Shown here piece after piece: positions 3,801 to 36,048 of a stretch of DNA of 64,000 nt. The translations under genes and the position numbers were made by a program. The notes under the pieces are model-generated. The model saw only the letters and a program-made list of their open reading frames with translations, made no database searches and was not told the DNA's origin. Positions within the stretch are counted from its first letter, which is position 1. Each line of letters begins with the position of its first letter. Source of the stretch: a virus; the IMG/VR virus record IMGVR_UViG_3300045988_162372; one strand, 5' to 3'.

Positions 3801-5735
3801 TTAACATTCAGCATTTTTCGGCTGTTCCTCTTCCTGTATAATGTCTGCATGTTGCACATCATCAATACTAAAGTCATAAACATTATTATCACGCTTTCTG
3901 AAACAGTCAATCAATCTCTTGATAAGTCTTGCGTAATATGCAGCTTGCTCAATAGCTATTCTTGCAGCAACATCAGAAGCAAGTGTTGCCAATAATTTCA
4001 TAAGCTCATTGAGAAGATATTGTATAAGTTGGTCTCTGACGGCACGAATAAGTGATGCGATGAGTTGCTTGAACATTGCCATGAAATCCTGTAAATTAAA
4101 GTTTGTTTCCCTTCCCAAAGTTTTAAGATTTATCAATATGAGAAGATATACTTTAGGTGAAAGAACAGAAAGTGTAATTACACAAGCAAGATGATTCATC
4201 AAGTTCTCAATAAAGTTCATTCTTACCCCAAAATTCACTTTACCAGTTTGTTCATAAGAAGTATCAGATATCGTGCCGCTTATTTCTGTAAGACTACCTT
4301 CGATAATAGATTGCATTTCTTGTTGCGTTGCGCTTTGGCTAATACCGTTCAAACTGCCAAGAATTGTTGACGGGTCTATTTTAACCGCACTGTTTTCCTC
4401 GCCATTAATTGAAAACAACCCACTTCTGTTCATTTCTGCTTTTTGCAGCATTGCATCATAATCGGCATTTGAAAAGGTAAAGAAACAATCACTCACAACT
4501 AAATCATCACTCTCAACAATATCTTGAACCATTTTCAATGTTTCGTTCTTGATAAGTTGTCTTGCATAAGAAAGATTGAGATGAATGTTCAATAAACCAG
4601 TTAATTGGTCTAATAATTGAGCTGCTACAACCTTTGAATCAAACAATTTCAATGAAGTGATATAATCATAATTAAACTCTATTAAAGTTTTACGATAATA
4701 ATAGTTTTCTTCGATGGGTTTATAATCTTTTGGTTTACCTAAAAATTCGTGATATTCATCTAATATGTTATAATATTCAGTATTAAGATTGGTGATTTCT
4801 TCATTCTTTACATTTATATTATTTTGAATATTATCTATCTCCGTATTAAGGGAAAGATATTGTTGCATATACTCATCATACGTGATAGTCTGTACAAGTA
4901 AAGATGTTGATAAATCGGCTATTTCATTGTGTTTCTCAGTTAAGTCACTTTGTAAATTTTCTAATTCTTCTTGTGCTTGGACTATTTCATTCGTTTTATC
5001 ATCCAACTGCTCTTGATATCCATCTTCATCCACATAATCGGTATTTCCGATAAATACATGAATACTGTTATTGAAAGGTGTCTGTATAGACATACCATTA
5101 CCTAAAGCATCTTTAATACCCATTGCCCTTTCATTGTATTCAAGGGTTATAATTCCGTCTATCTTTTCGTCTTTTGTACCTAACGCAGGACGTTCACCAT
5201 TTTCTTCATTAACCCTTTCATTTTTCCATACCTCTCTTTTGGTTGCTCTATTTTTCATATACCATAGAACCGCATTGAAATCTTCTGAGAATCTTGTATC
5301 ATCAGGCTTTGTCATTTCTTCACATCCAAAATAGAAATATTGTCCTATATTAGGGTCTGTAGGACAAGTTTGTAACAAATCTGTTATGTCAAGTTGCCTT
5401 AAATCAAATACAATACCCTCTCTTAACAAATCATCTGGTATATAAGGATTAATGGAACAAGATATAAGATTCTTGACGTTGGACATCAATATACCTTTCA
5501 CTGCAATCTCAACAGCATCAAGTTCATAAACAATGAAATTCGACAAAATTCTTATTAACGTATCATATCCTGCCGTATTTTTAAAAGCGTCCATTAAGAA
5601 AGTGAAAGGATTAGTTGAGGTATCCAGCGAAAGCAACGTATTTGTTGAATTCAGGTTTGGAAACTTGTCAATAATAGTAAGTGCTGCGTTAATCACGGCC
5701 AACGCATCATCTTTGACTTGCTTAATGTTTGCCAT
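3801..5735 (-). CDS. hypothetical large protein (central coiled coil; hydrophobic C-terminal segment)
   Basis: 644-aa ORF. Coiled-coil stretch QEELENLQSDLTEKHNEIADL...; hydrophobic VITLSVLSPKVYLLILINL near the C-terminus. Function unknown. Confidence 0.5.
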   Translation of the reverse strand: MANIKQVKDDALAVINAALTIIDKFPNLNSTNTLLSLDTSTNPFTFLMDAFKNTAGYDTLIRILSNFIVYELDAVEIAVKGILMSNVKNLISCSINPYIPDDLLREGIVFDLRQLDITDLLQTCPTDPNIGQYFYFGCEEMTKPDDTRFSEDFNAVLWYMKNRATKREVWKNERVNEENGERPALGTKDEKIDGIITLEYNERAMGIKDALGNGMSIQTPFNNSIHVFIGNTDYVDEDGYQEQLDDKTNEIVQAQEELENLQSDLTEKHNEIADLSTSLLVQTITYDEYMQQYLSLNTEIDNIQNNINVKNEEITNLNTEYYNILDEYHEFLGKPKDYKPIEENYYYRKTLIEFNYDYITSLKLFDSKVVAAQLLDQLTGLLNIHLNLSYARQLIKNETLKMVQDIVESDDLVVSDCFFTFSNADYDAMLQKAEMNRSGLFSINGEENSAVKIDPSTILGSLNGISQSATQQEMQSIIEGSLTEISGTISDTSYEQTGKVNFGVRMNFIENLMNHLACVITLSVLSPKVYLLILINLKTLGRETNFNLQDFMAMFKQLIASLIRAVRDQLIQYLLNELMKLLATLASDVAARIAIEQAAYYARLIKRLIDCFRKRDNNVYDFSIDDVQHADIIQEEEQPKNAEC

Positions 5736-9995: not shown

Positions 9996-10457
9996 TTATC
10001 TATCGTATTGTATTTCTATTTGTTTATTATCCTTGTCAACATATACGAGTCTTGGATAAGCATATTGAAGATTAGCCTTAAAACCACAACTACATTCATG
10101 TTTTGCAATAGTTTGTCTTGTGTAAGGATTACAATATAGCTTATGACTGCATCTTAATTCCTTTCCACATTTAGGGCAATATGCATGGATTAAATAAGCG
10201 TCTATTTTTTCACTTGAGAGAAGACCCTGTTCATCCATTTGTTTATCTGAAATCGTAGGATACTCCCGATGGAATTTATTAGCCATATCATTAGGGTCAT
10301 TTCTTAATTCGTCCAACTTTTTGGCATATTCATCCTTACTAAAATCAGAGGCAAATTGTTTTACCAACTCATCATCGTTATTTGAAACGACTTCATGGTT
10401 TTCATTCTGTTTATCAGCTTCAAACTGCTTCATATATTCTTCTAAAATGCTTCCCAT
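9996..10457 (-). CDS. hypothetical Zn-ribbon protein
   Basis: CPKCGKELRC ... HECSCG (four-Cys arrangement). Confidence 0.5.
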   Translation of the reverse strand: MGSILEEYMKQFEADKQNENHEVVSNNDDELVKQFASDFSKDEYAKKLDELRNDPNDMANKFHREYPTISDKQMDEQGLLSSEKIDAYLIHAYCPKCGKELRCSHKLYCNPYTRQTIAKHECSCGFKANLQYAYPRLVYVDKDNKQIEIQYDR

Positions 10458-10533
10458 TTTTTGTATTTATAGATTAATTTATAATTTTGTATATATTTAT
10501 AATAATATGTGTTTGTGATAAAATCAAGTCTTT

Positions 10534-11052
10534 TTATTTCCAAGTAACCTCTTTTTCGTTACCATTTTTATCATAATATGAAAACCAAAATTCTTTGGGT
10601 TCAAGAACAATAAGTTTATCCAATACATCTTTTGTGTATTTCTCAGCAACACCGTGTTTTACATAAGCAATAGTTGCATGGGGATGATATTCCTTATAGT
10701 CGGAATGAGTTGGATATTTGTCAGTAATAGCCTTATAAGAATTAAACAAAGGTATCGAACTTGCATCACACTTCAATACTTCAAAATCAGGATTATCAAA
10801 TGAAGATATGTTAGTAAGAAATGTTTGGTATTTATCCAAAGGCTCAAGCATATCTTTAAGCTTATTCAAATCGACATCATTATCAAGACAAGGAACAAGT
10901 GTAACATGAGTATCTGTTTCTATACCGTAACCGCTTCTACTGTCATCTCCATAATACAAATCATCTTCAGAAAGTTGTTCTTGTATGTCCTTAATAATAT
11001 CAGGCGTATTAAACCTAATCATTAAAAAAGCGTATTTCTTTTTATCTGCCAT
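10534..11052 (-). CDS. 2H phosphoesterase superfamily protein (LigT/CPDase-like; possible Acb1-like cyclic-nucleotide phosphodiesterase)
   Basis: Two H-x-T motifs at the expected spacing: TDT-H49-V-T51-LV and YHP-H125-A-T127-IAYV. Confidence 0.7.
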   Translation of the reverse strand: MADKKKYAFLMIRFNTPDIIKDIQEQLSEDDLYYGDDSRSGYGIETDTHVTLVPCLDNDVDLNKLKDMLEPLDKYQTFLTNISSFDNPDFEVLKCDASSIPLFNSYKAITDKYPTHSDYKEYHPHATIAYVKHGVAEKYTKDVLDKLIVLEPKEFWFSYYDKNGNEKEVTWK

Positions 11053-11071: not shown

Positions 11072-12199
11072 TTATTTAAGACTTTCTATTTCAGCTTGTT
11101 CTTTCAGGTATTTTCTAAGACAATCACGGCAAAGCAGTTTTCCATATGTTTGTTCAGCAATCTGCATATCCATATATTCAGTTGTTTCAGAATCAGAAAT
11201 ATCATCACTATCATCATCAATATCTTTTCCTTGTGTGGGATTCAAGTCATCAATGGATGACGGGTCATAATATACTTCCTTTCCACATCTTTCGCATACA
11301 TATTTCTCTGCAAAATTATCAGTAAGGTCAAGTACACGTTCCTTTCTCTCATGGTTAGCATATTTATCAGCCATTTCTTTATTGTAGAACTGCTTAATCA
11401 TATCTTCACCATTTATAACAATATCAGCACTAAACCTTAAAATATAATCACCATCAAACTCCAATACCTTTTCAAACGAAAGGTTATTGAATTCAAACTG
11501 TATCATATCATTCAATTTGTACGCATGAAGTGTCGTAAATGCAACGGATATAATATCTAAAATATCAGATTTAATACCTTTATCCCTAATATTTTCAACT
11601 TCCCTTACAAAACCTTTTGAGATGAATACCTTATCATCAGGATATATGCTTACATAAAAATCAAGTTTAACAGTTTTTCCTGGGTATTTTTCAAATACGA
11701 CAAGTTTTTTGGTAAATTCTTCTATTTTATAACGTGGAAAGAAATTCCTTTTTACGTTCAAGGTATAACTCTTCTTAGGCTCAACATAGATTAAATGTTC
11801 ATCCTTGTAAAATGCATCTTTTAACCCATCATTAACACCTTCAATATTTCTTTCGTTAGGCTGAATGGTAATTACATTTAGATTTTCTGAATTTTCAAAC
11901 TTTACAAATTTACTGTCATATTTTTCATCCATTTTCTTTGCCAACGTAGGCGAGAAATACTCATAATGTTTTGCCTCCCTATCCACTGTATAAGTTCTGT
12001 ATCTAAGTTCTTTCACCTCTTGTGTCAATTCACCTTTAAGGAGAGCTTTTGAAACTCTATGCGACCCCACTTCCTGATTAACTGAAATCATATTGTCATG
12101 ACTTGAACCAAGTTGTGTGAATATTTCGTTTTCTGTATTTTTAAGACCGAACATTAATCCAGTCCATACATTATTTATCTTATCTTTAATTTTTCCCAT
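11072..12199 (-). CDS. hypothetical protein with C-terminal split Zn ribbon and acidic insert
   Basis: CERCGK ... DDDSDDISDSETTE ... CRDC near the C-terminus. Confidence 0.5.
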   Translation of the reverse strand: MGKIKDKINNVWTGLMFGLKNTENEIFTQLGSSHDNMISVNQEVGSHRVSKALLKGELTQEVKELRYRTYTVDREAKHYEYFSPTLAKKMDEKYDSKFVKFENSENLNVITIQPNERNIEGVNDGLKDAFYKDEHLIYVEPKKSYTLNVKRNFFPRYKIEEFTKKLVVFEKYPGKTVKLDFYVSIYPDDKVFISKGFVREVENIRDKGIKSDILDIISVAFTTLHAYKLNDMIQFEFNNLSFEKVLEFDGDYILRFSADIVINGEDMIKQFYNKEMADKYANHERKERVLDLTDNFAEKYVCERCGKEVYYDPSSIDDLNPTQGKDIDDDSDDISDSETTEYMDMQIAEQTYGKLLCRDCLRKYLKEQAEIESLK

Positions 12200-12202
12200 A
12201 GT

Positions 12203-12403
12203 TTATTCTAACTCAATATCCTTTATTCTTTTATCAATTTCATTTTCAAATTGAGTTTTTATAGTAAATAATTCTGAACGTACATCAAATTTATCTTTAT
12301 TTCCACCATTAATTTCAATATCAATATTTAATCTTTTAATTTTCTCATTAATAAGGTCAAAATAAGCCTTCAATTCCATTATTGACAATTCACTGATTTT
12401 CAT
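12203..12403 (-). CDS. small coiled-coil protein
   Basis: 66-aa ORF starting 4 nt after the upstream stop. Confidence 0.4.
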   Translation of the reverse strand: MKISELSIMELKAYFDLINEKIKRLNIDIEINGGNKDKFDVRSELFTIKTQFENEIDKRIKDIELE

Positions 12404-12468
12404 TTGAATAAATTATATTATATAGAAATTATTATTAATTCAATATAATAATAGACATATAAAAAATC

Positions 12469-12502
12469 AAGGTGGCATTCCTTGTAAGAGAAACACCACC
12501 TT
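12469..12502 (-). terminator. weak hairpin terminator after the GMP reductase gene
   Basis: aaggtgg / ccacctt 7-bp stem with a 20-nt loop, followed on the minus strand by a T-run (plus strand aaaaaa 12461..12466). Confidence 0.35.
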
Positions 12503-12531
12503 AGAAAAAATAAATTTAGGAATAACAAAAA

Positions 12532-17962: not shown

Positions 17963-19417
17963 ATGAACGGTAAAAACCAATTTCCAAAAGTAACTACTGA
18001 AAGTATTATACAAAGATTTATAAATAAACGTGGAGATGAATATGATTATTCTCACGTAATATATAAAAATATGCATACAAAGGTTGCTATTGGTTGTAAA
18101 ATACATGGTATATTCTATCAAACCCCTCATAATCACTTAAAAGGACAAGGATGCCCAGAATGTAGTAAAAAGAAAGTTGCAGATGGACGTAGAATGTCAA
18201 AAGAAGAATTTATCAGAAGAGCAAAAGAGAAACATGGTAACAAATATGATTATTCAAAGGTTGAATATATAAACAATAGAACAAAGGTGTGTATTATTTG
18301 TCCTATTCATGGTGAATTTTGGCAGACACCTGATGAGCATTTAAGATATGGTTGTAAAAAATGTTCTGTAGAATATATTGCTCGAAAAAGAATAGAAAAT
18401 TCTGCTAAAACATTTGAACAAAGAGCAGGTGAAATACATAATTTCAAATATATTTATGAAAAAGATACTTATAAAGGAAATGATAATTTAATAACTGCAT
18501 ATTGTCCTATTCATGGTAAATTTACACAAATTGCGCATTATCATTTACAAGGTTATGGTTGCCCTAAGTGTGGAATAAGAAAATCTGAAAATGAGGATAA
18601 AATATGTGATTTTATTACTTCTTTTGGAATTAAGGCTGAAAAACACAATAGAACAATAATCAAACCTAATGAAATTGATATTCTTATACCAGAAAAGAAT
18701 ATAGGGATTGAATATGATGGCTTAATATGGCATTCTGAGAAATATAAAGTAGATTCTAATTATCATATTGGCAAAACTAATAAATGTAAAGAAAATAATA
18801 TACAATTAATTCATATATTTGAAGATGAATGGTTAGAAAAGGAAAATATAGTTAAATCAAATATATTAAATATATTAGAAGTATATGAAAATAAAATATT
18901 ATCCGATAATTGTGTAGTTAAAAACGTTTCACCTCAACAAGCTAAATATTTTCTAAATAACAACTATATTAAGGGAGAATGTCGAGCTAAAATACATTTA
19001 GGTTTGTATTATAATAATGAATTAATTTCTTTAATGTCATTTTCTAAATTAAAAATATTAAAAGGTGATGTATGGAAATTAGTTTGTTATTGTAATAAAA
19101 TTAATACAAGTATTTTAAATGGGGCAAATAAATTACTTCAATATTTTATAAAAAAAGAATTGCCATCTAAAATTATTACTTATGTTGATAAACGATGGAG
19201 TAATGGAAAAGAATACGTCGAAATGGGATTTACTTATACAAATGACACTAAGCCTGATTATTTCTATGTTATAAATCAACATAGAATAAGTCGTTTTAAA
19301 TATAAAAAGAATGATTTGACACAAAAAGAAATCTATAGAATATATGATTGTGGTTCAATGTGTTTTGAAATGAATTTAAACAAAAAAAAGAGGACTAAAT
19401 ATATAAGTCCTCTTTAA
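17963..19417 (+). CDS. free-standing homing-endonuclease-like protein: 3 Zn-ribbon modules + Vsr-like PD-(D/E)XK core + GNAT-like C-terminal domain
   Basis: Repeated module (KYDYS.V.Y....KV.IICPIHGEFWQTP..HL.G.GCP.C), then NEIDILIPEKNIGIEYDGLIWHSE...IQLIHIFEDEW, then a C-terminal domain shared with 51928..53625 (ends EIYRIYDCGSMCF). Confidence 0.65.
   Translation: MNGKNQFPKVTTESIIQRFINKRGDEYDYSHVIYKNMHTKVAIGCKIHGIFYQTPHNHLKGQGCPECSKKKVADGRRMSKEEFIRRAKEKHGNKYDYSKVEYINNRTKVCIICPIHGEFWQTPDEHLRYGCKKCSVEYIARKRIENSAKTFEQRAGEIHNFKYIYEKDTYKGNDNLITAYCPIHGKFTQIAHYHLQGYGCPKCGIRKSENEDKICDFITSFGIKAEKHNRTIIKPNEIDILIPEKNIGIEYDGLIWHSEKYKVDSNYHIGKTNKCKENNIQLIHIFEDEWLEKENIVKSNILNILEVYENKILSDNCVVKNVSPQQAKYFLNNNYIKGECRAKIHLGLYYNNELISLMSFSKLKILKGDVWKLVCYCNKINTSILNGANKLLQYFIKKELPSKIITYVDKRWSNGKEYVEMGFTYTNDTKPDYFYVINQHRISRFKYKKNDLTQKEIYRIYDCGSMCFEMNLNKKKRTKYISPL
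17990..18574 (+). repeat. three tandem Zn-ribbon DNA-binding-type modules (protein-level repeat)
   Basis: GDEYDYSHVIYKNMHTKVAIGCKIHGIFYQTPHNHLKGQGCPEC / GNKYDYSKVEYINNRTKVCIICPIHGEFWQTPDEHLRYGCKKC / NFKYIYEKDTYKGNDNLITAYCPIHGKFTQIAHYHLQGYGCPKC. Confidence 0.8.
19387..19415. terminator. bidirectional hairpin between the convergent nuclease and sheath genes
   Basis: aaagaggact / agtcctcttt perfect 10-bp stem with a 9-nt loop. It lies inside the last codons of the plus-strand gene. Confidence 0.55.
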
Positions 19418-24906: not shown

Positions 24907-26754
24907 ATGGGTGAGCAATTAAGTATCAGAAAGATTAAAAAAGCATACGATATATTAAAATTTTACAACGGAGATAATAATCAAATTCTTCTTTATCAGA
25001 ATGAATATAAGAATGGAAGTTTTGTGTTGAATGATTTTTCGTACAAATATATTACTTCCAATCAAGATTACACACCGTTACAGATAAATAAAACAATTCG
25101 CATATCCTCTGATTACGGCAACATATTAAAAGAAAAATACAATATAGATTTTATTCCAAACAAGGTAAAAATCACTAAGATAATAGGGGAAATGAATAAC
25201 AGTTATCATTGCTATGTGCAATATAGACAAAGTATCCCCCCTCAACTTATGTATGTGAATAAAAATTACATCATAGATAAACTATTTGATAATAAAACAG
25301 ATTCTTATGAGAATATAGATTTTGATAAATACGATAAATTAGCCGAAAAAAATGGTAGAAAACTAAAACCTCACCAAAAAGAAGCTATAAGATTCCTTCT
25401 TACCAATAAAAAATGTATTTTAGCTGATTCAATGGGTCTTGGGAAAACACTAGATACAATTGTTGCGGCTTTGGAAGGTGGTTTCAAACATATACTTGTA
25501 ATTACGACTGCATCTGTAAAAAGTACATGGAAAAAAGAAATATCTTATTATGAAGATGAAGATAACATTGCAATAATGAGCGGTTCTAAATGGGTAAATG
25601 CAAAGAAATTTACTATAACAAACTATGATATAGTACAAAATTTCTATCAAGTTCCATATGAAGCAGTTGAAGAACTCGATGAAAATGGAGAAGTGATTGT
25701 AAAACTTAGAAAATCACAAAAAAAGGAAGTAATAAACGAAAGTTTAATGAAAAGCCCTTTATTCCAAGAACATTTTGATTGTGTAATTATTGATGAAGCA
25801 CAAAAATTATCAAATAAAACCTCAATAAGATATAAGACAATTTATGATTTTCTTCATAGAGCTAAACCAGAAGCAGTTTTTTTAGTCACTGGAACTCCTT
25901 TGACAAATAAGCCCATTAATCTTTATAATATATTATGTCTTATAGATGCTGATATTACAAAAGATTATAATTATTATTGTATGAGATACTGCGATGGCCG
26001 TAAAATGAAACTAAGAACAGGAAAAATAATCTTGCTTAATAACGGAGCAAGCCATTTGGATGAATTAAGAGAAAAAATTAAACATTTATATATAAGAAGG
26101 TTACAATCTGAAACAAATGGAATGGTTAGTAAAACAGTATTAACAAAAGAATATGATTTAAATGAACAACAAAAAGAAATATATAATACATTATGGGATA
26201 ATTACTTACAAGCCAAGAAAGAATTAGGTGTTGATGATGCAGAAAAATACAAAGATCTAGTGGAAGGTATAATTGTAAGGCAGTATTTGGCTAAAGAAAT
26301 GATACCTAATACTATTGAATTGACCGATGACCAAATAAATTATGGCGAAAAAGTAATTATTGTATGTACATTCCAAGAAGAAATTGATATACTGAAAGAA
26401 CATTACGGAAGAAAAGCTGTTGTTTATAACGGTAAGATGACGGCCAAAGCAAAAGATAAAGCCGTTGATAGTTTTATGAATAATCCTAATACAACAGTAT
26501 TTATTTGTAATTTAACCGCCGCAAGTGTAGGTATTACATTAACAGCATCTCATTACATTATATTTAATTCATATTCATGGGTAAGTGCTGACAATAAACA
26601 GATGGAGGATAGAATTTATCGCTTAACACAAGATAAAGATGTGACTTGTGTATATCAAATGTTTACGGATTCTATTTCAAAAGAAATGTATGATATTGTT
26701 AAAAATAAAGAGCTGATAGCCGAAGAAGTTATCAAGACTGAAAAGGACAAATAA
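24907..26754 (+). CDS. SNF2/RAD54-family helicase
   Basis: LKPHQKEAIRFLL, ILADSMGLGKT (motif I), VIIDEAQKLSN (motif II), LVTGTPLTNKP (motif III), and a C-terminal helicase lobe (VFICNLTAASVGITLT...QMEDRIYRLTQ). Confidence 0.85.
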   Translation: MGEQLSIRKIKKAYDILKFYNGDNNQILLYQNEYKNGSFVLNDFSYKYITSNQDYTPLQINKTIRISSDYGNILKEKYNIDFIPNKVKITKIIGEMNNSYHCYVQYRQSIPPQLMYVNKNYIIDKLFDNKTDSYENIDFDKYDKLAEKNGRKLKPHQKEAIRFLLTNKKCILADSMGLGKTLDTIVAALEGGFKHILVITTASVKSTWKKEISYYEDEDNIAIMSGSKWVNAKKFTITNYDIVQNFYQVPYEAVEELDENGEVIVKLRKSQKKEVINESLMKSPLFQEHFDCVIIDEAQKLSNKTSIRYKTIYDFLHRAKPEAVFLVTGTPLTNKPINLYNILCLIDADITKDYNYYCMRYCDGRKMKLRTGKIILLNNGASHLDELREKIKHLYIRRLQSETNGMVSKTVLTKEYDLNEQQKEIYNTLWDNYLQAKKELGVDDAEKYKDLVEGIIVRQYLAKEMIPNTIELTDDQINYGEKVIIVCTFQEEIDILKEHYGRKAVVYNGKMTAKAKDKAVDSFMNNPNTTVFICNLTAASVGITLTASHYIIFNSYSWVSADNKQMEDRIYRLTQDKDVTCVYQMFTDSISKEMYDIVKNKELIAEEVIKTEKDK

Positions 26755-26823: not shown

Positions 26824-27621
26824 ATGAATACTGAAGAGTTTATAAGAAGAGCGAAAATAATCCACGGTGATAAATATGATTATTCAAAAACAAAATATGT
26901 AAATACCCAAACAAAGGTTTGCATTATTTGTCCAATTCACGGGGAATTCTGGCAGAGATATAGTGATCATTTATATGGAAGAGGGTGCAAAAAATGTATG
27001 GCGGAAAAATTAAGGAATGACAATTCGTTATCCCAAGAAGAGTTTATAAGAAAAGCAAGAGAGGTACATGGTGATAAGTATGATTATTCGAAAGTAATTT
27101 ATAATGGTAATAAAAAGAAAATATGCATTATTTGCCCCATACACGGAGAGTTTTGGCAAATAGCAGGTAATCATTTACGTGGCTATGGATGCCAAAAATG
27201 TGTCAGAAGTATATATGATACTGAAAGTTTTACATATAAAGCAAACATAACACATCATAATAAATATGATTATTCAAAGGTAAAATACGAAGAATATGAT
27301 AAGCCAGTGTGTATTATTTGTCATAAAAAAGATGAAAATGGAATCGAACACGGAGAATTTTGGCAAACACCACATGGACACACACAAGGTAATGGATGCC
27401 CAAAATGTGCGATTGAAGGAATACAACTGCAACACAGAATGACAACCCAAGAATTTATTAAAAAAGCAGAAGAAGTACACGGTGATAAGTATGATTATTC
27501 GAAAGTCGAATATGTAAATTGTAATACACCGATATGTATTATTTGCCCCATACACGGAGAGTTTTGGCAAAAACCTCACAATCATTTAACAGGTAGTGGA
27601 TGTATACTATGTAACGAGAGT
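26824..27621 (+). repeat. four tandem Zn-ribbon modules; modules 2 and 4 nearly identical at the DNA level
   Basis: ggtgataagtatgattattcgaaagt occurs at about 27072 and about 27482. attatttgccccatacacggagagttttggcaaa occurs at about 27128 and about 27538. Offset is 410 nt. Confidence 0.8.
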
Positions 27622-27960
27622 AGGTGTGAGACAAAAGTTAGAAAAATATTATTATCTAATGATATTCATTTTGAGTATCAAAAAAGATTTAATTGGTTAG
27701 GAAAACAATCATTGGATTTCTATTTGCCTGATTATAATATTGCAATTGAATGTCAAGGTGTACAACACTTTAAACCTGTTAGTCATTTTGGAGGAATACT
27801 GGCATTTCACAAACAATATAAAAAAGACAAAATAAAATGGTCTTTATGTGAAGAACATAATATAAAAATTTTATATTATACCATAAATAAAGAAATATTA
27901 AATTCTTCAGTTATAAGAAATGAAAATGATTTATTGAAAGAAATATGGAAGAGAAAATAA
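26824..27960 (+). CDS. free-standing homing-endonuclease-like protein: 4 Zn-ribbon modules + Vsr/DUF559-like PD-(D/E)XK core
   Basis: Four copies of EEFIRKA.EVHGDKYDYSKV.Y....K.CIICPIHGEFWQ.P..HL.G.GC.KC, then LDFYLPDYNIAIECQGVQHF...KDKIKWSLCEEHNIKILYY. Confidence 0.65.
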   Translation: MNTEEFIRRAKIIHGDKYDYSKTKYVNTQTKVCIICPIHGEFWQRYSDHLYGRGCKKCMAEKLRNDNSLSQEEFIRKAREVHGDKYDYSKVIYNGNKKKICIICPIHGEFWQIAGNHLRGYGCQKCVRSIYDTESFTYKANITHHNKYDYSKVKYEEYDKPVCIICHKKDENGIEHGEFWQTPHGHTQGNGCPKCAIEGIQLQHRMTTQEFIKKAEEVHGDKYDYSKVEYVNCNTPICIICPIHGEFWQKPHNHLTGSGCILCNESRCETKVRKILLSNDIHFEYQKRFNWLGKQSLDFYLPDYNIAIECQGVQHFKPVSHFGGILAFHKQYKKDKIKWSLCEEHNIKILYYTINKEILNSSVIRNENDLLKEIWKRK

Positions 27961-31085: not shown

Positions 31086-31128
31086 TGCAATATATTAATT
31101 TATATATAAATAGTTCATCACTTCAATC

Positions 31129-31136
31129 ATATTTAT
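31129..31136 (+). promoter_or_regulatory. putative late promoter core (ATATTTAT)
   Basis: 29 nt upstream of ATG 31166. Confidence 0.4.
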
Positions 31137-31165
31137 TAGAAATAAGATATAAAGTAATAATATCA

Positions 31166-31678: not shown

Positions 31679-34231
31679 ATGTTAATTAATAAATTATTTG
31701 TAATGAGTTCAAAACCTGAAGTAACAAAAGAGCAGGTACATGCTTTTTTGATGGGTAGTAACCCAATGGAACATATCATCAAAATCGAAGGAGATTATAA
31801 TGATGATAAGATTTATGTTATTTACAGAGATGAGAATAACAAACTAAAGACTGACATAGATAATTTCTATCCTTTTGTATGGTGTAAACAAAGCACTGGA
31901 CGTTTTCTCTATAATGGGGACAGAAAGAAACTGAAAGACGCTATGGCTAAATACAATTTAGGCTGTAAGGGTCTTAGAATACATGATACTGATGGAAATG
32001 TACATCCTCGTATGGAAAATGGATATCGTGTCATGTTCTATGCTAAAACACCTATGGCATTTTCCAAATTCCAAAAATTCTTTGAAGAAGGTGGAAGACC
32101 TATATATCCAAAACCAAGCGACAAAAGTTACGGATTAAGGGATTATATCTGTGTTGCTCCTAATGAACAATATATGATTTCAACAGGAAAAAGAATGTTC
32201 AAGGGGTATGAAGATTATGATGACTTGCTACGTCTTGAATGGGACTTGGAAACAGAAGGACTTGACCCAAATATCAATGCCATTTCACAGATTGGTATAA
32301 GAACAAACAAGGGTTTTGAAAAAATCATTTCAATTCAAGGCGAAGGTGAAGAAAAACTTGAAAATGAAATGAAAGGTTTATCAGAGTTTTTCCAAATTGT
32401 AAGAGAAATACAACCTGATGTAATGACAGGACATAACACAGAGAACTTCGACTGGAATTTTATTGATGTTCGTCTAAAAAAGCGTGGGTTATCCCTTTTC
32501 GATTATACACAACAGTTATTTTATGGAAAAGGTATATATAAAAAACAAAAAGAGGCTGTTTTGAAATTAGGAGGGGAAATGGAATATTATTATCCTACTG
32601 TAATGTGGGGACATAATCTTACAGATTCTTTATTTGCTGTAAGACGTGCGCAAGCTCTTGATAGTAATATGAAAAAAGCCGATTTGAAGTATGTTACTAA
32701 ATATTCAAAACTGAATAAACCCAATCGTGTATATGTACCAGGAAAAGTTATTAATAAAACTTGGAGTGATACATCAAAAACTTATGCTTTTAATAATGAG
32801 AATGGTGAATGGTTTAAGATAACAGATGAAATTCTAAACAAAACTTTTATAAATTGTATTGGAGAAAAACTACAAAGATACAGTCTAAATAACGATGGCA
32901 CATTACATGATAATAAAGAAAATCGAGATTTTAAATATGTAACAGGACGATACATTGTTGAACGTTATCTTTTGGATGACCTTTATGAAACAGATAAGGT
33001 GGAGCTTCGTTATAATCAATCTAATTTTCTTGTGGGTAAGATGCTTCCTGTGTCATTTGAGAAAATGTGTACAATGGGAACTGCCGCTATATGGAAGTAT
33101 ATTATGCTTGCATGGAGTTACGAACATGATTTAGCAATTCCAGAATTAATTGATACAAAACCGTTTACAGGTGGATTATCACGTTTATTAAAAGTAGGGT
33201 ATGTAGATAGAATTGTAAAATTGGATTTCAATTCACTTTATCCATCTATTATTCTTTCATTTAATATTAAGACACCTGTAGATGTAATGGGTGTTATGAA
33301 TGCTATTCTTGAATACATCTTGACTGAACGTGAATACTATAAAGGATTAAAGGCAGATTTTGGAGCAAAAGCAAAAAAGATAAAGAAACAAATAGAAGTA
33401 AATCCAAATCTTCCAAATATCAAGGAATTAAAAGAAGAGCAACAAAAATACGAAACAGAAGCTGCACGAAATGACAAGATGCAATTGCCTTTAAAGATTA
33501 CTGGTAATGCATTCTTTGGTTCATACGGTTCTGGAAGCGTTTTTCCTCATTCAGATTTGATTTGTGCAGAAGAAACAACTTGTACAGGACGTATGATGTT
33601 GCGACTTATGATTTCGCATTTCACGAGTATTGGATATGAACCTATTGTAGGTGATTCATTTACCGAAGATACTCCTTTATTTATCAAATATAATAATACA
33701 AATGACATTGATATAGTACCAATATCAAAATTGATAAATGAAAAGAAAATTAAAAAGGATAAATTAGATAGGGAGTATGATACCTCTAAAAAAGATTTTA
33801 AGGTATTATGTAGAAGCGGATGGAAAGAAGCCACATATATTTACAGACATAAAACAGATAAGGATATATATCGTATAAATGATAACAATTGTTCTGTTGA
33901 TGTTACAGAAGACCATTCTCTGTTTAATGAAAAACAAGAGAAAGTAATACCAAGCGAAATAAACAAGAATACTAAACTTGAATATTATAATGGTGGAAAT
34001 ATTATATCGAATAAATATACATTCGATAAACGTAAATTAAATATGTGTGCAGTCCTTGCAGCAGGAAATAGAGAACACGCTTTGATAACAAAAGAAGTGC
34101 TTAATAGTACGGTTTCTTGCAAAAAATATTTCTTGGATAGGTTTGAACATTATAGACAACCAAACAAAAAATATTCAAAGCAAATTATAGCTTCATTACA
34201 ATATATTAAAATGTGTGTAGAAAATAGGTAA
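31679..34231 (+). CDS. polB: family-B DNA polymerase, N-terminal fragment (exonuclease + palm to mid motif C) fused to an N-intein
   Basis: Exo I LEWDLETEGLD, Exo II HNTENFDWNF, Exo III YLLDDLYETD, motif A LDFNSLYPSII, motif B KITGNAFFGSYGS. Polymerase sequence ends ...GYEPIVGD (aa 659), followed by intein block A SFTEDTPLF and block B VDVTEDHSLF. Alternative start MSSKPE at 31703. Confidence 0.85.
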   Translation: MLINKLFVMSSKPEVTKEQVHAFLMGSNPMEHIIKIEGDYNDDKIYVIYRDENNKLKTDIDNFYPFVWCKQSTGRFLYNGDRKKLKDAMAKYNLGCKGLRIHDTDGNVHPRMENGYRVMFYAKTPMAFSKFQKFFEEGGRPIYPKPSDKSYGLRDYICVAPNEQYMISTGKRMFKGYEDYDDLLRLEWDLETEGLDPNINAISQIGIRTNKGFEKIISIQGEGEEKLENEMKGLSEFFQIVREIQPDVMTGHNTENFDWNFIDVRLKKRGLSLFDYTQQLFYGKGIYKKQKEAVLKLGGEMEYYYPTVMWGHNLTDSLFAVRRAQALDSNMKKADLKYVTKYSKLNKPNRVYVPGKVINKTWSDTSKTYAFNNENGEWFKITDEILNKTFINCIGEKLQRYSLNNDGTLHDNKENRDFKYVTGRYIVERYLLDDLYETDKVELRYNQSNFLVGKMLPVSFEKMCTMGTAAIWKYIMLAWSYEHDLAIPELIDTKPFTGGLSRLLKVGYVDRIVKLDFNSLYPSIILSFNIKTPVDVMGVMNAILEYILTEREYYKGLKADFGAKAKKIKKQIEVNPNLPNIKELKEEQQKYETEAARNDKMQLPLKITGNAFFGSYGSGSVFPHSDLICAEETTCTGRMMLRLMISHFTSIGYEPIVGDSFTEDTPLFIKYNNTNDIDIVPISKLINEKKIKKDKLDREYDTSKKDFKVLCRSGWKEATYIYRHKTDKDIYRINDNNCSVDVTEDHSLFNEKQEKVIPSEINKNTKLEYYNGGNIISNKYTFDKRKLNMCAVLAAGNREHALITKEVLNSTVSCKKYFLDRFEHYRQPNKKYSKQIIASLQYIKMCVENR

Positions 34232-34494
34232 TACTTTGACAGAAGAAAAGAGTAAAAATATTTTAGCAAAGAAATATAATTGTCCGCAAAATATATCTGA
34301 ACATGAATTTTGTAAAAGTAAAGGATGGTACAGAATATATGATTGCAGTTGTTTATGCTATAAATGGAAAAAAGTAATAATTAAACAAGAATGTTATGAA
34401 AGTACAAAAAATAAATAAGACTGATAAGTATGTTTATGATATTTCACTTGATGGAACAGTTGTAAACGCATTAGGAATGAATATTCTCTCCAAT
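33656..34494 (+). mobile_element. split intein in PolB motif C: N-intein 33656..34228, 164-nt gap with endonuclease relic, C-intein 34396..34494
   Basis: Ser1 codon at 33656; T-x-x-H block B; stop at 34229..34231. The second ORF opens with the 33-aa MKVQKINKTDKYVYDISLDGTVVNALGMNILSN, then Thr+1 at 34495. Joined exteins read PIVGD-TDGFNF. Confidence 0.7.
34236..34418 (+). pseudogene. relic of the C-terminus of the Zn-ribbon/Vsr-like nuclease family, lying between the intein halves
   Basis: SKNILAKKYNCPQNISEHEFCKSKGWYRIYDCSCLCYKW aligns with SKNNMIKKYGLDKKLTEWEMARQLGYDRIWDCGLLKYVW (C-terminus of 51928..53625) and with EIYRIYDCGSMCF (C-terminus of 17963..19417). Confidence 0.6.
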
Positions 34495-36048
34495 ACAGAT
34501 GGATTTAATTTTCAAATGCCTAAAACATTTCGTTATACTGACGAGCATCCGTATATAAGTGATGGGGGAGGACGCAATAGTGAAAAAGGTAAAAAATATA
34601 CAAAAGTAGATGCAGATGTTGCTGAATTTGAAGACAAGTATTTAAATCACGCCTTTAATGGAGGTATTAATAAAAACGGTCTTGGTATAGATGAATATTG
34701 TAATGCTACCATTAATTTTGCTCGTAAGAATTATGCAGACTTGCTTGATAATGGAAAGATTAAAATGGTTGGAAATACAATCAAATCCAAAAAAATGCCT
34801 ATTTACATTGAAAAATTTTTGAATGAAGCCATAAGACTTTTATTAAATGGTAAAGGCGCAGAATTTCTTGAATATTACTATGATTATGTAGAGAAAATTT
34901 ACAATTTACAAATTCCATTACAAGATATTGCAACTGTTGGTAAAATAAAAGTCAATCTTGATACCTATAAAGCTAATTGCAAGAAATTGACATCAGCAGG
35001 AACTAAGAAAGCAAGACAAGCATGGTATGAGCTTGCAATTAAAGACAATTTAAATGTCAATATGGGCGATGCAATATATTATATCAATGTGGGAAATAAA
35101 AAAGCTACATCAGACATACAAAGAGTGAGCAAATTATATTATATTGATAAAAATGGAAATAAATGCGAGGATTTCATTGATGAAAATGGTGAGGTTGTGT
35201 ATGATAAAAAAGGAAACCCTAGTAATTTTACTAAGAAAATAAAAGCGGAGTATGATAAGCTGAAAAAATCAATGAATAAATCGGTTATAAAGAACATAAA
35301 TGACCCATCCAATACATTTTATACTATACTTGAGTACGCCCAACAGAAATATCCTTTCTTAAAAATTCAGGAAGAAGATGAGATAATATTCAATTGTGTT
35401 AGACTTTCAAATGAAATTGTAGAGGACGAAGAGGAACATTTTTGCACTGCTGATTTTGAATATAATAGGGCAAAATACATCAATATGTTCAACAGTCGTA
35501 TAAGACCCTTGCTTGTATGTTTTGATAAAAAAATCAGAACAAAAATAAACGATAAAGGTAAAGAAGTTGACAACATCTTAATTGATAACCCAAAAGATAG
35601 AAAAGCCTTTACCGAGGATGAAAGTAAACTTGTATCTGGTCAACCATATAACATAAAAGATCAAGACACTTATGAACAACTTATGACTATCGAGGATAAG
35701 GAAATCAAGTTTTGGTTATCAGTTAACAAAACACCACCTTTTGTAAAAGAATGTGGAATTGATTGGGATAAGACTGTTGAAAAATATCAAGAAAGACAGA
35801 AACAACTTGAAAGTGAAGGAGTTAAAGCTGAACTGGAAGAGTATAATAAAATAATTGATTCTTTAAAAGAAAGTGATGTAGAAAAATTCAACGAAACTGG
35901 TGAATTGCCAGATAAGTTAATGAAACTCATTGATATAAATATGGATACATATGACTTCGTTTCAAAGAAATGGGGAGTTATATTAGGAAGTATGTTTGAT
36001 GTACTTGATAAAGATTTTAGTATAAATAGATTTGATGCGGAAGAATGA
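34396..36048 (+). CDS. polB: C-intein (33 aa) fused to the family-B DNA polymerase C-terminal fragment (rest of motif C, thumb)
   Basis: After ...NILSN the sequence TDGFNF completes motif C. ARKNYADLLDNGKIKMVGNTIKSKKMP matches the KKRY-type region that follows motif C in family-B polymerases. Confidence 0.8.
   Translation: MKVQKINKTDKYVYDISLDGTVVNALGMNILSNTDGFNFQMPKTFRYTDEHPYISDGGGRNSEKGKKYTKVDADVAEFEDKYLNHAFNGGINKNGLGIDEYCNATINFARKNYADLLDNGKIKMVGNTIKSKKMPIYIEKFLNEAIRLLLNGKGAEFLEYYYDYVEKIYNLQIPLQDIATVGKIKVNLDTYKANCKKLTSAGTKKARQAWYELAIKDNLNVNMGDAIYYINVGNKKATSDIQRVSKLYYIDKNGNKCEDFIDENGEVVYDKKGNPSNFTKKIKAEYDKLKKSMNKSVIKNINDPSNTFYTILEYAQQKYPFLKIQEEDEIIFNCVRLSNEIVEDEEEHFCTADFEYNRAKYINMFNSRIRPLLVCFDKKIRTKINDKGKEVDNILIDNPKDRKAFTEDESKLVSGQPYNIKDQDTYEQLMTIEDKEIKFWLSVNKTPPFVKECGIDWDKTVEKYQERQKQLESEGVKAELEEYNKIIDSLKESDVEKFNETGELPDKLMKLIDINMDTYDFVSKKWGVILGSMFDVLDKDFSINRFDAEE

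Follow-up and report, generated by a model that had tools for sequence, protein, structure and literature searches.

How is a functional replicase made from a DNA polymerase gene that is interrupted inside its own catalytic motif? This question is raised by a 64,000-nt stretch of viral DNA (IMG/VR record IMGVR_UViG_3300045988_162372; the whole stretch is hereafter called the window), in which a family-B DNA polymerase (PolB) is encoded by two adjacent open reading frames (ORFs), ORF1 and ORF2. The analysis described below indicates that the two products very probably carry the halves of a naturally split class-1 intein of the Ser1/Thr+1 type (oxyester chemistry), which is situated between Asp and Thr of PolB motif C (xGD/TDG, with the slash marking the insertion point) and is derived from a one-piece LAGLIDADG intein via insertion of an endonuclease gene, and we propose that the two halves undergo trans-splicing.

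Break of the polymerase gene within motif C

ORF1 (31679..34231, plus strand, 850 amino acids) and ORF2 (34396..36048, plus strand, 550 amino acids) are separated by a 164-nt spacer and lie in different reading frames. The Pfam domains PF03104 (exonuclease) and PF00136 (polymerase) were both identified in ORF1, which also matches PHROG 262 'DNA polymerase' (E 3e-64), the coverage being only positions 15-561 of the 856-position profile. The polymerase portion of ORF1 ends with ...GYEPIVGD at 33655, and is followed by 191 residues (SFTEDTPLF ... VDVTEDHSLF ...) from Ser1 at 33656 up to the TAA stop. At the N-terminus of ORF2 stands the 33-residue MKVQKINKTDKYVYDISLDGTVVNALGMNILSN, followed by TDGFNFQ with Thr+1 at 34495. 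When the polymerase portions (exteins) are joined, they can be aligned with archaeal PolB structures across motifs A, B and C (E 2.6e-9), the alignment at motif C reading ...yepivgDTDGfnfqmp against ...fkvlyiDTDGlyatip of Pyrococcus abyssi PolB; therefore, the break falls after the first Asp of motif C and before its Thr. The gene anatomy given in the initial annotation, which was made from the letters alone, was reproduced in full on re-reading of the sequence, including the ORF coordinates, the 164-nt gap, the frame change, the polymerase end at ...EPIVGD, block A SFTEDTPLF, block B VDVTEDHSLF and the stop at 34231. Its assignment of ORF1 to PolB with an exonuclease and palm motifs A and B agrees with Pfam, PHROG 262 and the archaeal PolB structure alignment, and the latter also bears out the break in motif C (VGD-TDG when joined).

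Translation of ORF1 probably starts from the ATG at 31703 (MSSKPEV...) and not at 31679: the gene call on an identical ENA contig begins at Met9, giving 842 amino acids, and the homologue alignments begin there too. No Rfam match at E<=1, including no group I or group II intron, was detected in the region 33000-35000, and a promoter and terminator scan of the spacer gave no terminator and 8 promoter-like sites against 5 +/- 2 expected. Since the spacer carries neither an intron-like RNA nor a terminator, ORF1 and ORF2 are probably co-transcribed.

Empty, one-piece and split alleles at the insertion point

A scan of IMG/VR yielded 79 loci, which were dissected by tblastn with six query pieces together with direct translation. 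In the intein-free loci (L015, L019-25, L027, L031-33 and L036-38) the N-extein, 46-66% identical to that of the window (L036 not counted), abuts the C-extein in one frame, and because these alleles read ...IVGD/TDGFNFQ..., the exact insertion point is defined. By this sequence comparison the insertion is assigned to the D/T position of motif C, the classical 'pol-c' point, with Ser1 and Thr+1 as the predicted nucleophiles. The archaeal inteins Tli Pol-2 and Neq Pol are presumably located at the same D/TDG point.

At the same point two loci, L010 and L017, carry one-piece inteins of 355 and 356 residues, both with two LAGLIDADG motifs and a His-Asn/Thr end. Their N-intein core is 42-50% identical to that of the window (E ~1e-24) and their C-intein 57-61%; for all related loci, one-piece inteins included, C-intein identity to the window is 57-97%. 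As a group, the one-piece pol-c inteins (L010, L017 and those of long metagenomic PolBs) share with the window the insertion point, the nucleophiles and clear sequence homology, but they are contiguous, hold an intact two-motif LAGLIDADG domain and mostly end with His-Asn. The third allelic state was observed in 19 split loci, in which the halves are separated by a gap of 1.7-5.6 kb that contains 1-3 long plus-strand ORFs of one zinc-finger/nuclease family, homing-endonuclease-like in each case.

With the L010 one-piece intein as query, a word-indexed search of proteins gave 2 matches; it was superseded by an exhaustive HMMER search, which identified 720 representative clusters at E<=1e-3. The nearest clusters are ORF1-like with the match at the C-terminus, and the more distant ones are proteins of 1250-2100 amino acids with an internal match. 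Six of these long relatives were scanned and all six are PolB, with an Intein_splicing match in three, above the cutoff in two. The intein start reads xxD/S in 32 of 33 long relatives, and the C-terminal junction reads xN/TD(G/S) in all 20 in which it was found.

Three of the dissected loci show further peculiarities. A distant PolB (about 31% identity) in L040 (8161..9270) carries a related one-piece LAGLIDADG intein (SVSFDSP...ILCHN/T) at another site, about 60 residues downstream of motif C. In L011 a stop codon directly follows TDG (10657..10672) and the C-extein resumes in another frame, which may reflect a frameshift, a sequencing error or a further insertion. The gap of L001 (8505..14151) extends over 5.6 kb with two or three endonuclease genes inside, and it also contains a 436-amino-acid minus-strand ORF (11220..12530), TnpB-like in look only, and a displaced second copy of an N-intein tail fragment (10393..10962), 64% identical to the tail of the window.

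Recurrence of the split arrangement

The exact ORF2 protein is recorded on 13 assembled contigs, and the ENA contig ERZ1314577 (312.9 kb) agrees with the window at 100% identity along 9653 nt, spacer included. For statistics on homologues we used the best 120 homologue clusters of each ORF, all of which have the split two-gene layout. Among the ORF1 clusters (60-94% identity) nearly all proteins are 817-875 amino acids long, with one truncated at 758, and the query coverage is 98-99% in most, tail included. Nearly all ORF2 homologues are 540-566 amino acids long with the C-intein, mostly of 33-36 residues, at the start. The split arrangement is thus real, far beyond chance or error, because identical DNA was obtained in independent assemblies and the layout is shared across homologues.

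It might still be asked whether the break is an assembly or sequencing artefact of a one-piece gene, or is bridged at the level of RNA or the ribosome by a group I intron, frameshifting or bypassing, for three reading frames succeed each other (+1, +1) across an A-rich spacer. This explanation is scarcely credible given the identical sequence in independent assemblies, the relatives with complete endonuclease genes in the 1.7-5.6 kb gaps, the lack of an Rfam match in 33000-35000 as noted above, and the conservation of the intein halves at the protein level.

The carrier is an uncultured jumbo myovirus lineage with a tail sheath gene and contigs of 217-313 kb. Megablast of the locus against GenBank phages gave no match, and tblastn gave distant PolBs only; no description of this phage lineage was found in the open-access texts searched.

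Probable intein nature of the inserted halves

The residues expected for splicing are conserved without exception among the homologues: Ser1 and the block B T-x-x-H (TEDH in 118, TQDH in 2) are present in 120/120 ORF1 homologues, and the terminal Asn plus Thr+1 (N/T) in 120/120 ORF2 homologues and in all dissected loci. The NX motif reads YIYRHKT where the intein is split and YVYKHKT where it is in one piece; its His is invariant, and Lys replaces Arg only in the one-piece forms. The NX His of the window family aligns with MKH of the Aes123 intein, and an (R/K)-His NX motif has been reported as a signature of Ser1 inteins (PMC10189870).

Profile searches placed the family among inteins. The one-piece homologues of L010 and L017 score 31.2 and 26.8 bits on TIGR01445 (intein_Nterm), above its cutoff of 24.5, and match PF14528 (LAGLIDADG_3) with 36 bits against a cutoff of 22.5. 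A profile built from 13 fused mini-inteins and searched against the PDB sequences matches inteins only, with 9HTH (Aes123 PolB1) at E 4e-4, followed by TFIIB inteins and CatC; single-sequence phmmer searches of the N-intein, C-intein and tail against the same sequences gave nothing significant. An AlphaFold model was then built with 36 ORF1 homologues and compared by Foldseek against the PDB and BFVD. Its predicted local distance difference test (pLDDT) score is 85 overall, 81-97 in the N-intein and 93-98 in the tail; a fused mini-intein modelled without alignment reached a pLDDT of only 36. The top 8 matches in the PDB are all inteins, including the RadA mini-intein, PI-PkoII and NeqN (probability 0.99). 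In BFVD 16 matches were obtained at E<=1e-3 (best 2.7e-9), almost all of them intein-bearing DNA polymerases of giant viruses or phages, including the 'Intein-containing split DNA polymerase' of Aeromonas phage AS-gz. The predicted fold of the N-intein is therefore Hint-like in the model. PI-PkoII (2CW7), an intein of motif B, was dropped as a same-site intein and kept only as a structural and sequence relative.

The BFVD matches also include a 263-amino-acid 'DNA polymerase' (A0A5S9HXP1) of Tenacibaculum phage PTm1, a cultured Bacteroidota jumbo phage, with E 1.9e-4 against the N-intein model; this protein may be part of another fractured PolB.

Several observations weigh against the split-intein reading. 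The penultimate His and the block-F His normally assist Asn cyclisation, and both are common, though not universal, in inteins. The penultimate His is missing in the window, which ends with Ser-Asn, and in most split members: 116 of the ORF2 homologues have Ser at this position, 3 have Cys and 1 has His, and His is kept in the one-piece relatives (His-Asn). Neither the split forms nor the one-piece relatives have the block-F His. On TIGR01445 the N-intein of the window scores 21.7 bits (E 2.9e-4), below the cutoff, it has no Pfam intein match at E<=1, and its membership of the intein family rests partly on transitive homology. The C-intein part of the AlphaFold model is of low confidence, lacking alignment depth, and the Foldseek E-values in the PDB are weak (0.03-0.1), though the probabilities are 0.97-1.0. 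Across the family, the halves do not show the charge complementarity that is typical of fast split inteins. Finally, the spliced product is a predicted one.

The initial annotation had read the inserted segments as a split intein that has Ser1 and Thr+1 and carries Ser where the penultimate His is usual. This reading gains support from the empty-site alleles, the one-piece homologues, the catalytic residues in 120/120 homologues, and the profile and fold matches, and its three residues are all seen in the window and in 120, 120 and 116 of the 120 homologues, respectively. Two of the checks that it had suggested also bear on this reading. In the profile searches the window N-intein fell short of the TIGR01445 cutoff and of any Pfam match, but the one-piece relatives passed and the family profile matched PDB inteins; in the comparison with the Hint fold the N-intein model matched inteins, but the C-intein was left without a confident model.

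With the two assisting His residues missing in most split members, one might suppose that the halves no longer splice and serve only as non-covalent docking domains of a two-subunit polymerase. The extra folded tail of the N-intein, conserved in length and possibly an interaction module, would fit such a role, and non-covalent docking has been reported for the fragmented NrdA of phage Aeh1 (PMC3045599). We consider docking alone improbable. Ser1, TxxH, the NX His, the terminal Asn and Thr+1 stay invariant down to about 60% identity as their neighbours vary, a pattern that splicing chemistry alone explains, and the insertion splits the two catalytic aspartates of motif C, so that an unspliced complex is unlikely to polymerise. 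On balance, trans-splicing of the halves is highly likely from this combined analysis.

One sub-group of C-inteins among the ORF2 homologues ends with ...DGTVCSSMFKIMSN instead of ...DGTVVNALGMNVLSN; block G is replaced in this sub-group, and Ser-Asn/Thr is kept.

The tail of the N-intein

Among the homologues, the C-terminal 79 residues of ORF1 differ in sequence, with their length conserved. This tail is basic (net charge +9 in the window, family mean +6.3) and was modelled as a confident helical domain with the pLDDT range given above. By hhalign its profile aligns to residues 224-281 of the L010 one-piece intein, which correspond to the second LAGLIDADG repeat (probability 79%, E 1.6e-5), and the catalytic GDG segment is missing. 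Because of this alignment without GDG, the split intein appears to keep the dead half of the former endonuclease domain.

A homing endonuclease relic in the spacer

A sister genome, L012 (IMGVR_UViG_3300045988_157961, 216.6 kb), shares 96-99% identity with the window in the region of the locus, and carries an intact 633-amino-acid ORF between the intein halves. This ORF matches PHROG 559 'HNH endonuclease' (E 9e-150) and also PHROG 3339 'homing endonuclease', and contains DUF4379 zinc fingers plus a sub-threshold match to PD-(D/E)XK REase. Its best PDB match is I-Bth0305I (3R3P, E 0.008), which belongs to the Vsr-like family originally reported from fractured genes (PMC2677866, PMC3239194).

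L012 8581..10315 (about 1.74 kb) has no counterpart in the window, the junction as located by the blastn breakpoints being near 34251-34258, within an AGAAAAG-type microhomology. The endonuclease start codon is mutated in the window from ATG to ATA (34224-34226). A spacer ORF of 60 codons (34236..34418) still matches the C-terminus of PHROG 559/3339 (E 1.6e-4). With the internal deletion and the ATG-to-ATA change mapped against L012, this ORF can be read as the N-terminal 9 codons of an L012-type endonuclease gene fused to its C-terminal 45 or so codons. At its 3' end the relic shares 23 nt with the start of ORF2, and the stop of the gene upstream lies within the 5' end of the endonuclease gene. 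In L012 and in all other split loci examined the endonuclease gene between the halves is intact; the window has the dead relic. As to the initial description of the locus as a fractured gene, the split intein was supported, but a clean two-gene split was not, and that the spacer is the relic of a deleted endonuclease gene had been missed.

A dead gene in the spacer could also be the sign of a decaying pseudogene, with the polymerase broken and replication taken over by another polymerase. The state of the flanking genes makes this very improbable, as the two ORFs are intact over 850 and 550 codons in the window and intact in hundreds of clusters, and the N-extein substitutions relative to L012 are mostly synonymous (10/13). 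The coordinates of the polymerase, intein and relic segments are collected in Table 1.

Table 1. Segments of the split PolB locus and the basis of their assignment (positions in the window)
Segment	Position	Strand	Content	Basis
N-extein	31679..33655	+	PolB exonuclease domain, motif A DFNSLYPSI, motif B KITGNAFFGSYG, first Asp of motif C (...IVGD)	Pfam, PHROG 262, archaeal PolB structure alignment
Predicted N-intein splicing core, about 112 amino acids	33656..33991	+	Ser1, block A SFTEDTPLF, NX motif YIYRHKT, block B VDVTEDHSLF	Profile, homology, fold
N-intein tail, 79 amino acids plus TAA stop	33992..34231	+	Basic, helical; apparent degenerate second LAGLIDADG repeat without catalytic motif	hhalign, AlphaFold
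Homing endonuclease gene relic	34224..34418	+		PHROG 559/3339 C-terminal match, intact gene in L012, blastn breakpoints
Predicted C-intein, 33 amino acids	34396..34494	+	Block F YVYDISLDG, block G NALGMNILSN, Ser-Asn end	Homology to related loci
C-extein including stop codon	34495..36048	+	Thr+1 (TDGFNFQ...), rest of motif C, remaining PolB C-terminal part	Contiguous with N-extein in intein-free relatives

Comparison with L012 and inspection of the remaining window gave several additional observations on mobile elements. A 124-nt segment within the N-intein (33886..34009) holds 15 of the 46 mismatches to L012, a rate of 12% against 0.66% in the N-extein, a pattern that suggests recombination or co-conversion beside the site of endonuclease insertion. 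Two more free-standing PHROG 559 homing endonuclease genes are located at 17963..19417 (E 3e-103) and 26824..27960 (E 1.5e-74). The latter directly follows the helicase gene 24907..26754 and, because it is absent from the 96-99% identical L012, represents a presence/absence polymorphism. Conversely, L012 has just upstream of its polymerase gene (4262..5463) an endonuclease-like ORF of 385 amino acids with CPxHGxF zinc-finger repeats and an LDIYIP...IEYQG nuclease motif, the counterpart of which is missing in the window (site 31112..31141).

Proposed origin and splicing pathway

We propose that the ancestor was a one-piece LAGLIDADG intein, of the kind still found at the same site in related phages, and that its decayed endonuclease region was invaded by a homing endonuclease gene, free-standing and of the Vsr-like/PHROG 559 type. 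Later, in the genome of the window, the start codon and about 1.74 kb of the endonuclease gene would have been lost, leaving the 164-nt spacer. The 850- and 550-residue precursors would associate via the intein halves, and an N-O acyl shift at Ser1 would be followed by attack of Thr+1 on the ester, with transfer of the N-extein to Thr+1; cyclisation of the terminal Asn and a subsequent O-N shift would then form the Asp-Thr peptide bond of motif C. The product would be a 1176-residue polymerase with the DTD motif intact. This class-1 pathway has been demonstrated for other Ser1 split inteins (PMC11923092, PMC12707363, PMC10189870). Because the intein separates the two metal-binding aspartates, the unspliced polymerase is unlikely to be catalytically competent, as judged from its sequence.

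A bolder proposal can be made only tentatively, and we regard it as rather doubtful: this lineage may hold the first mesophilic, phage-borne, naturally split Ser1/Thr+1 pol-c intein, splicing without either of the cyclisation-assisting His residues and keeping a degenerate LAGLIDADG half as a folded, strongly basic 79-residue module in a new role, for instance in solubility of the N-intein or in tethering the precursor to DNA. If such a mode of pol-c splicing is real, new orthogonal split inteins that are Cys-independent could be drawn from the hundreds of natural variants.

Comparison with known split inteins and fractured genes

The Neq Pol intein of Nanoarchaeum equitans PolB (Choi 2006; 5OXZ) resembles the element of the window in being naturally split, residing in PolB and using oxyester chemistry without a Cys nucleophile. 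NeqN and the N-intein of the window match in Foldseek with probability 0.99 and a target template modelling (TM) score of 0.62, and are 22% identical over the aligned part. Neq Pol has Ser1/Thr+1 and an N-intein of about 98 residues without a LAGLIDADG remnant. It differs from the window in that its host is a hyperthermophilic archaeon, its two genes are at separate loci (PMC2677866) and there is no endonuclease relic; the element described here is the equivalent of Neq Pol at the pol-c point, but carried by a phage and encoded in adjacent genes.

Split inteins of phage PolB1 are known from Aes123 and CP21 (T4-like Aeromonas and Campylobacter phages), for which trans-splicing was shown experimentally (PMC11923092, PMC12707363), and PolB split inteins also from the Pseudomonas jumbo phages MIJ3 and PA5oct (PMC6892783). 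As in the window, PolB is broken in motif C, the halves are adjacent on the same strand, and a homing endonuclease gene or small ORFs lie between them; Ser1, block B VTEDHS and the NX motif are shared. In contrast to the VGD/S...SN/TDG of the window, the PolB1 type is inserted at GDTD/S with Ser+1 and keeps His-Asn and the block-F His. Direct reading of the junctions in MIJ3 and in Campylobacter phage F379 gave YGDTD/S...HN/S, two residues downstream of the site of the window. The PolB1 N-inteins are 115-120 residues long without the 79-residue tail, and their similarity to the window is at the profile level only (E 4e-4). PolB16 OarG from a sheep gut metagenome (PMC10189870) is likewise a Cys-independent split intein of PolB motif C with the NX His, but its split is atypical (N-intein of 15 residues) and its site is GDTD/S with Ser+1.

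The gene order of the lineage, namely N-part with N-intein, free-standing homing endonuclease gene, and C-intein with C-part, is that of the fractured genes described by Dassa in 2009 (gp41, NrdA/J, IMPDH, DnaE and others; PMC2677866), including the overlap of the endonuclease gene with the upstream stop and downstream start and its Vsr-like family. The window itself corresponds to step III of the Dassa model, the loss of the endonuclease gene, as at locus gp41-7 (PMC2677866). Its 33-residue C-intein starts just before block F and its N-intein ends after block B plus the endonuclease-domain remnant, which places the split at the position of the endonuclease domain. Unlike the cases of Dassa, the host gene and the intein allele are different ones, and the ancestral, fractured and endonuclease-deleted forms are all sampled in one phage lineage. 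The initial comparison with gp41, NrdA/J and IMPDH thus stands, but the rarity that it implied for a PolB motif C case was overstated in view of Aes123, CP21, MIJ3/PA5oct and PolB16, in addition to a candidate in Prevotella Lak phages described below.

The novelty is accordingly modest, as split PolB inteins in phages and archaea and fractured genes were already known. The locus is of value chiefly because it supplies the gene-breaking model with a complete natural series and offers a pool of Cys-independent split inteins. Every step of gene breaking is present in this single lineage, from the empty site and the one-piece LAGLIDADG intein through the fractured gene with 1-3 endonuclease genes to an endonuclease gene in the middle of deletion, and because all steps are sampled side by side, the model becomes testable within closely related genomes. 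A large natural family of Ser1/Thr+1 split inteins joins the few known ones without a Cys nucleophile; Cys-independent split inteins are sought for protein ligation under oxidising conditions (PMC11923092, PMC12707363). With respect to phage biology, a widespread group of uncultured jumbo phages apparently depends on protein trans-splicing for a working form of its essential replicase, and without recognition of the intein, gene callers and annotators would list such polymerases as two 'hypothetical' or truncated proteins.

A candidate in Prevotella Lak megaphages

In the course of these comparisons, Prevotella phage Lak-B5 (L083, MK250024.1 515724..516086), a megaphage of a Bacteroidota host, was noticed to encode a PolB part that reads ...AGDTD/S and then runs into an unannotated N-intein of the PolB1 type, terminated by stop codons. 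The downstream half was not located in the Prevotella Lak megaphages. Apparently motif C of this PolB is likewise interrupted by a split intein; a stop codon may be recoded in these phages.

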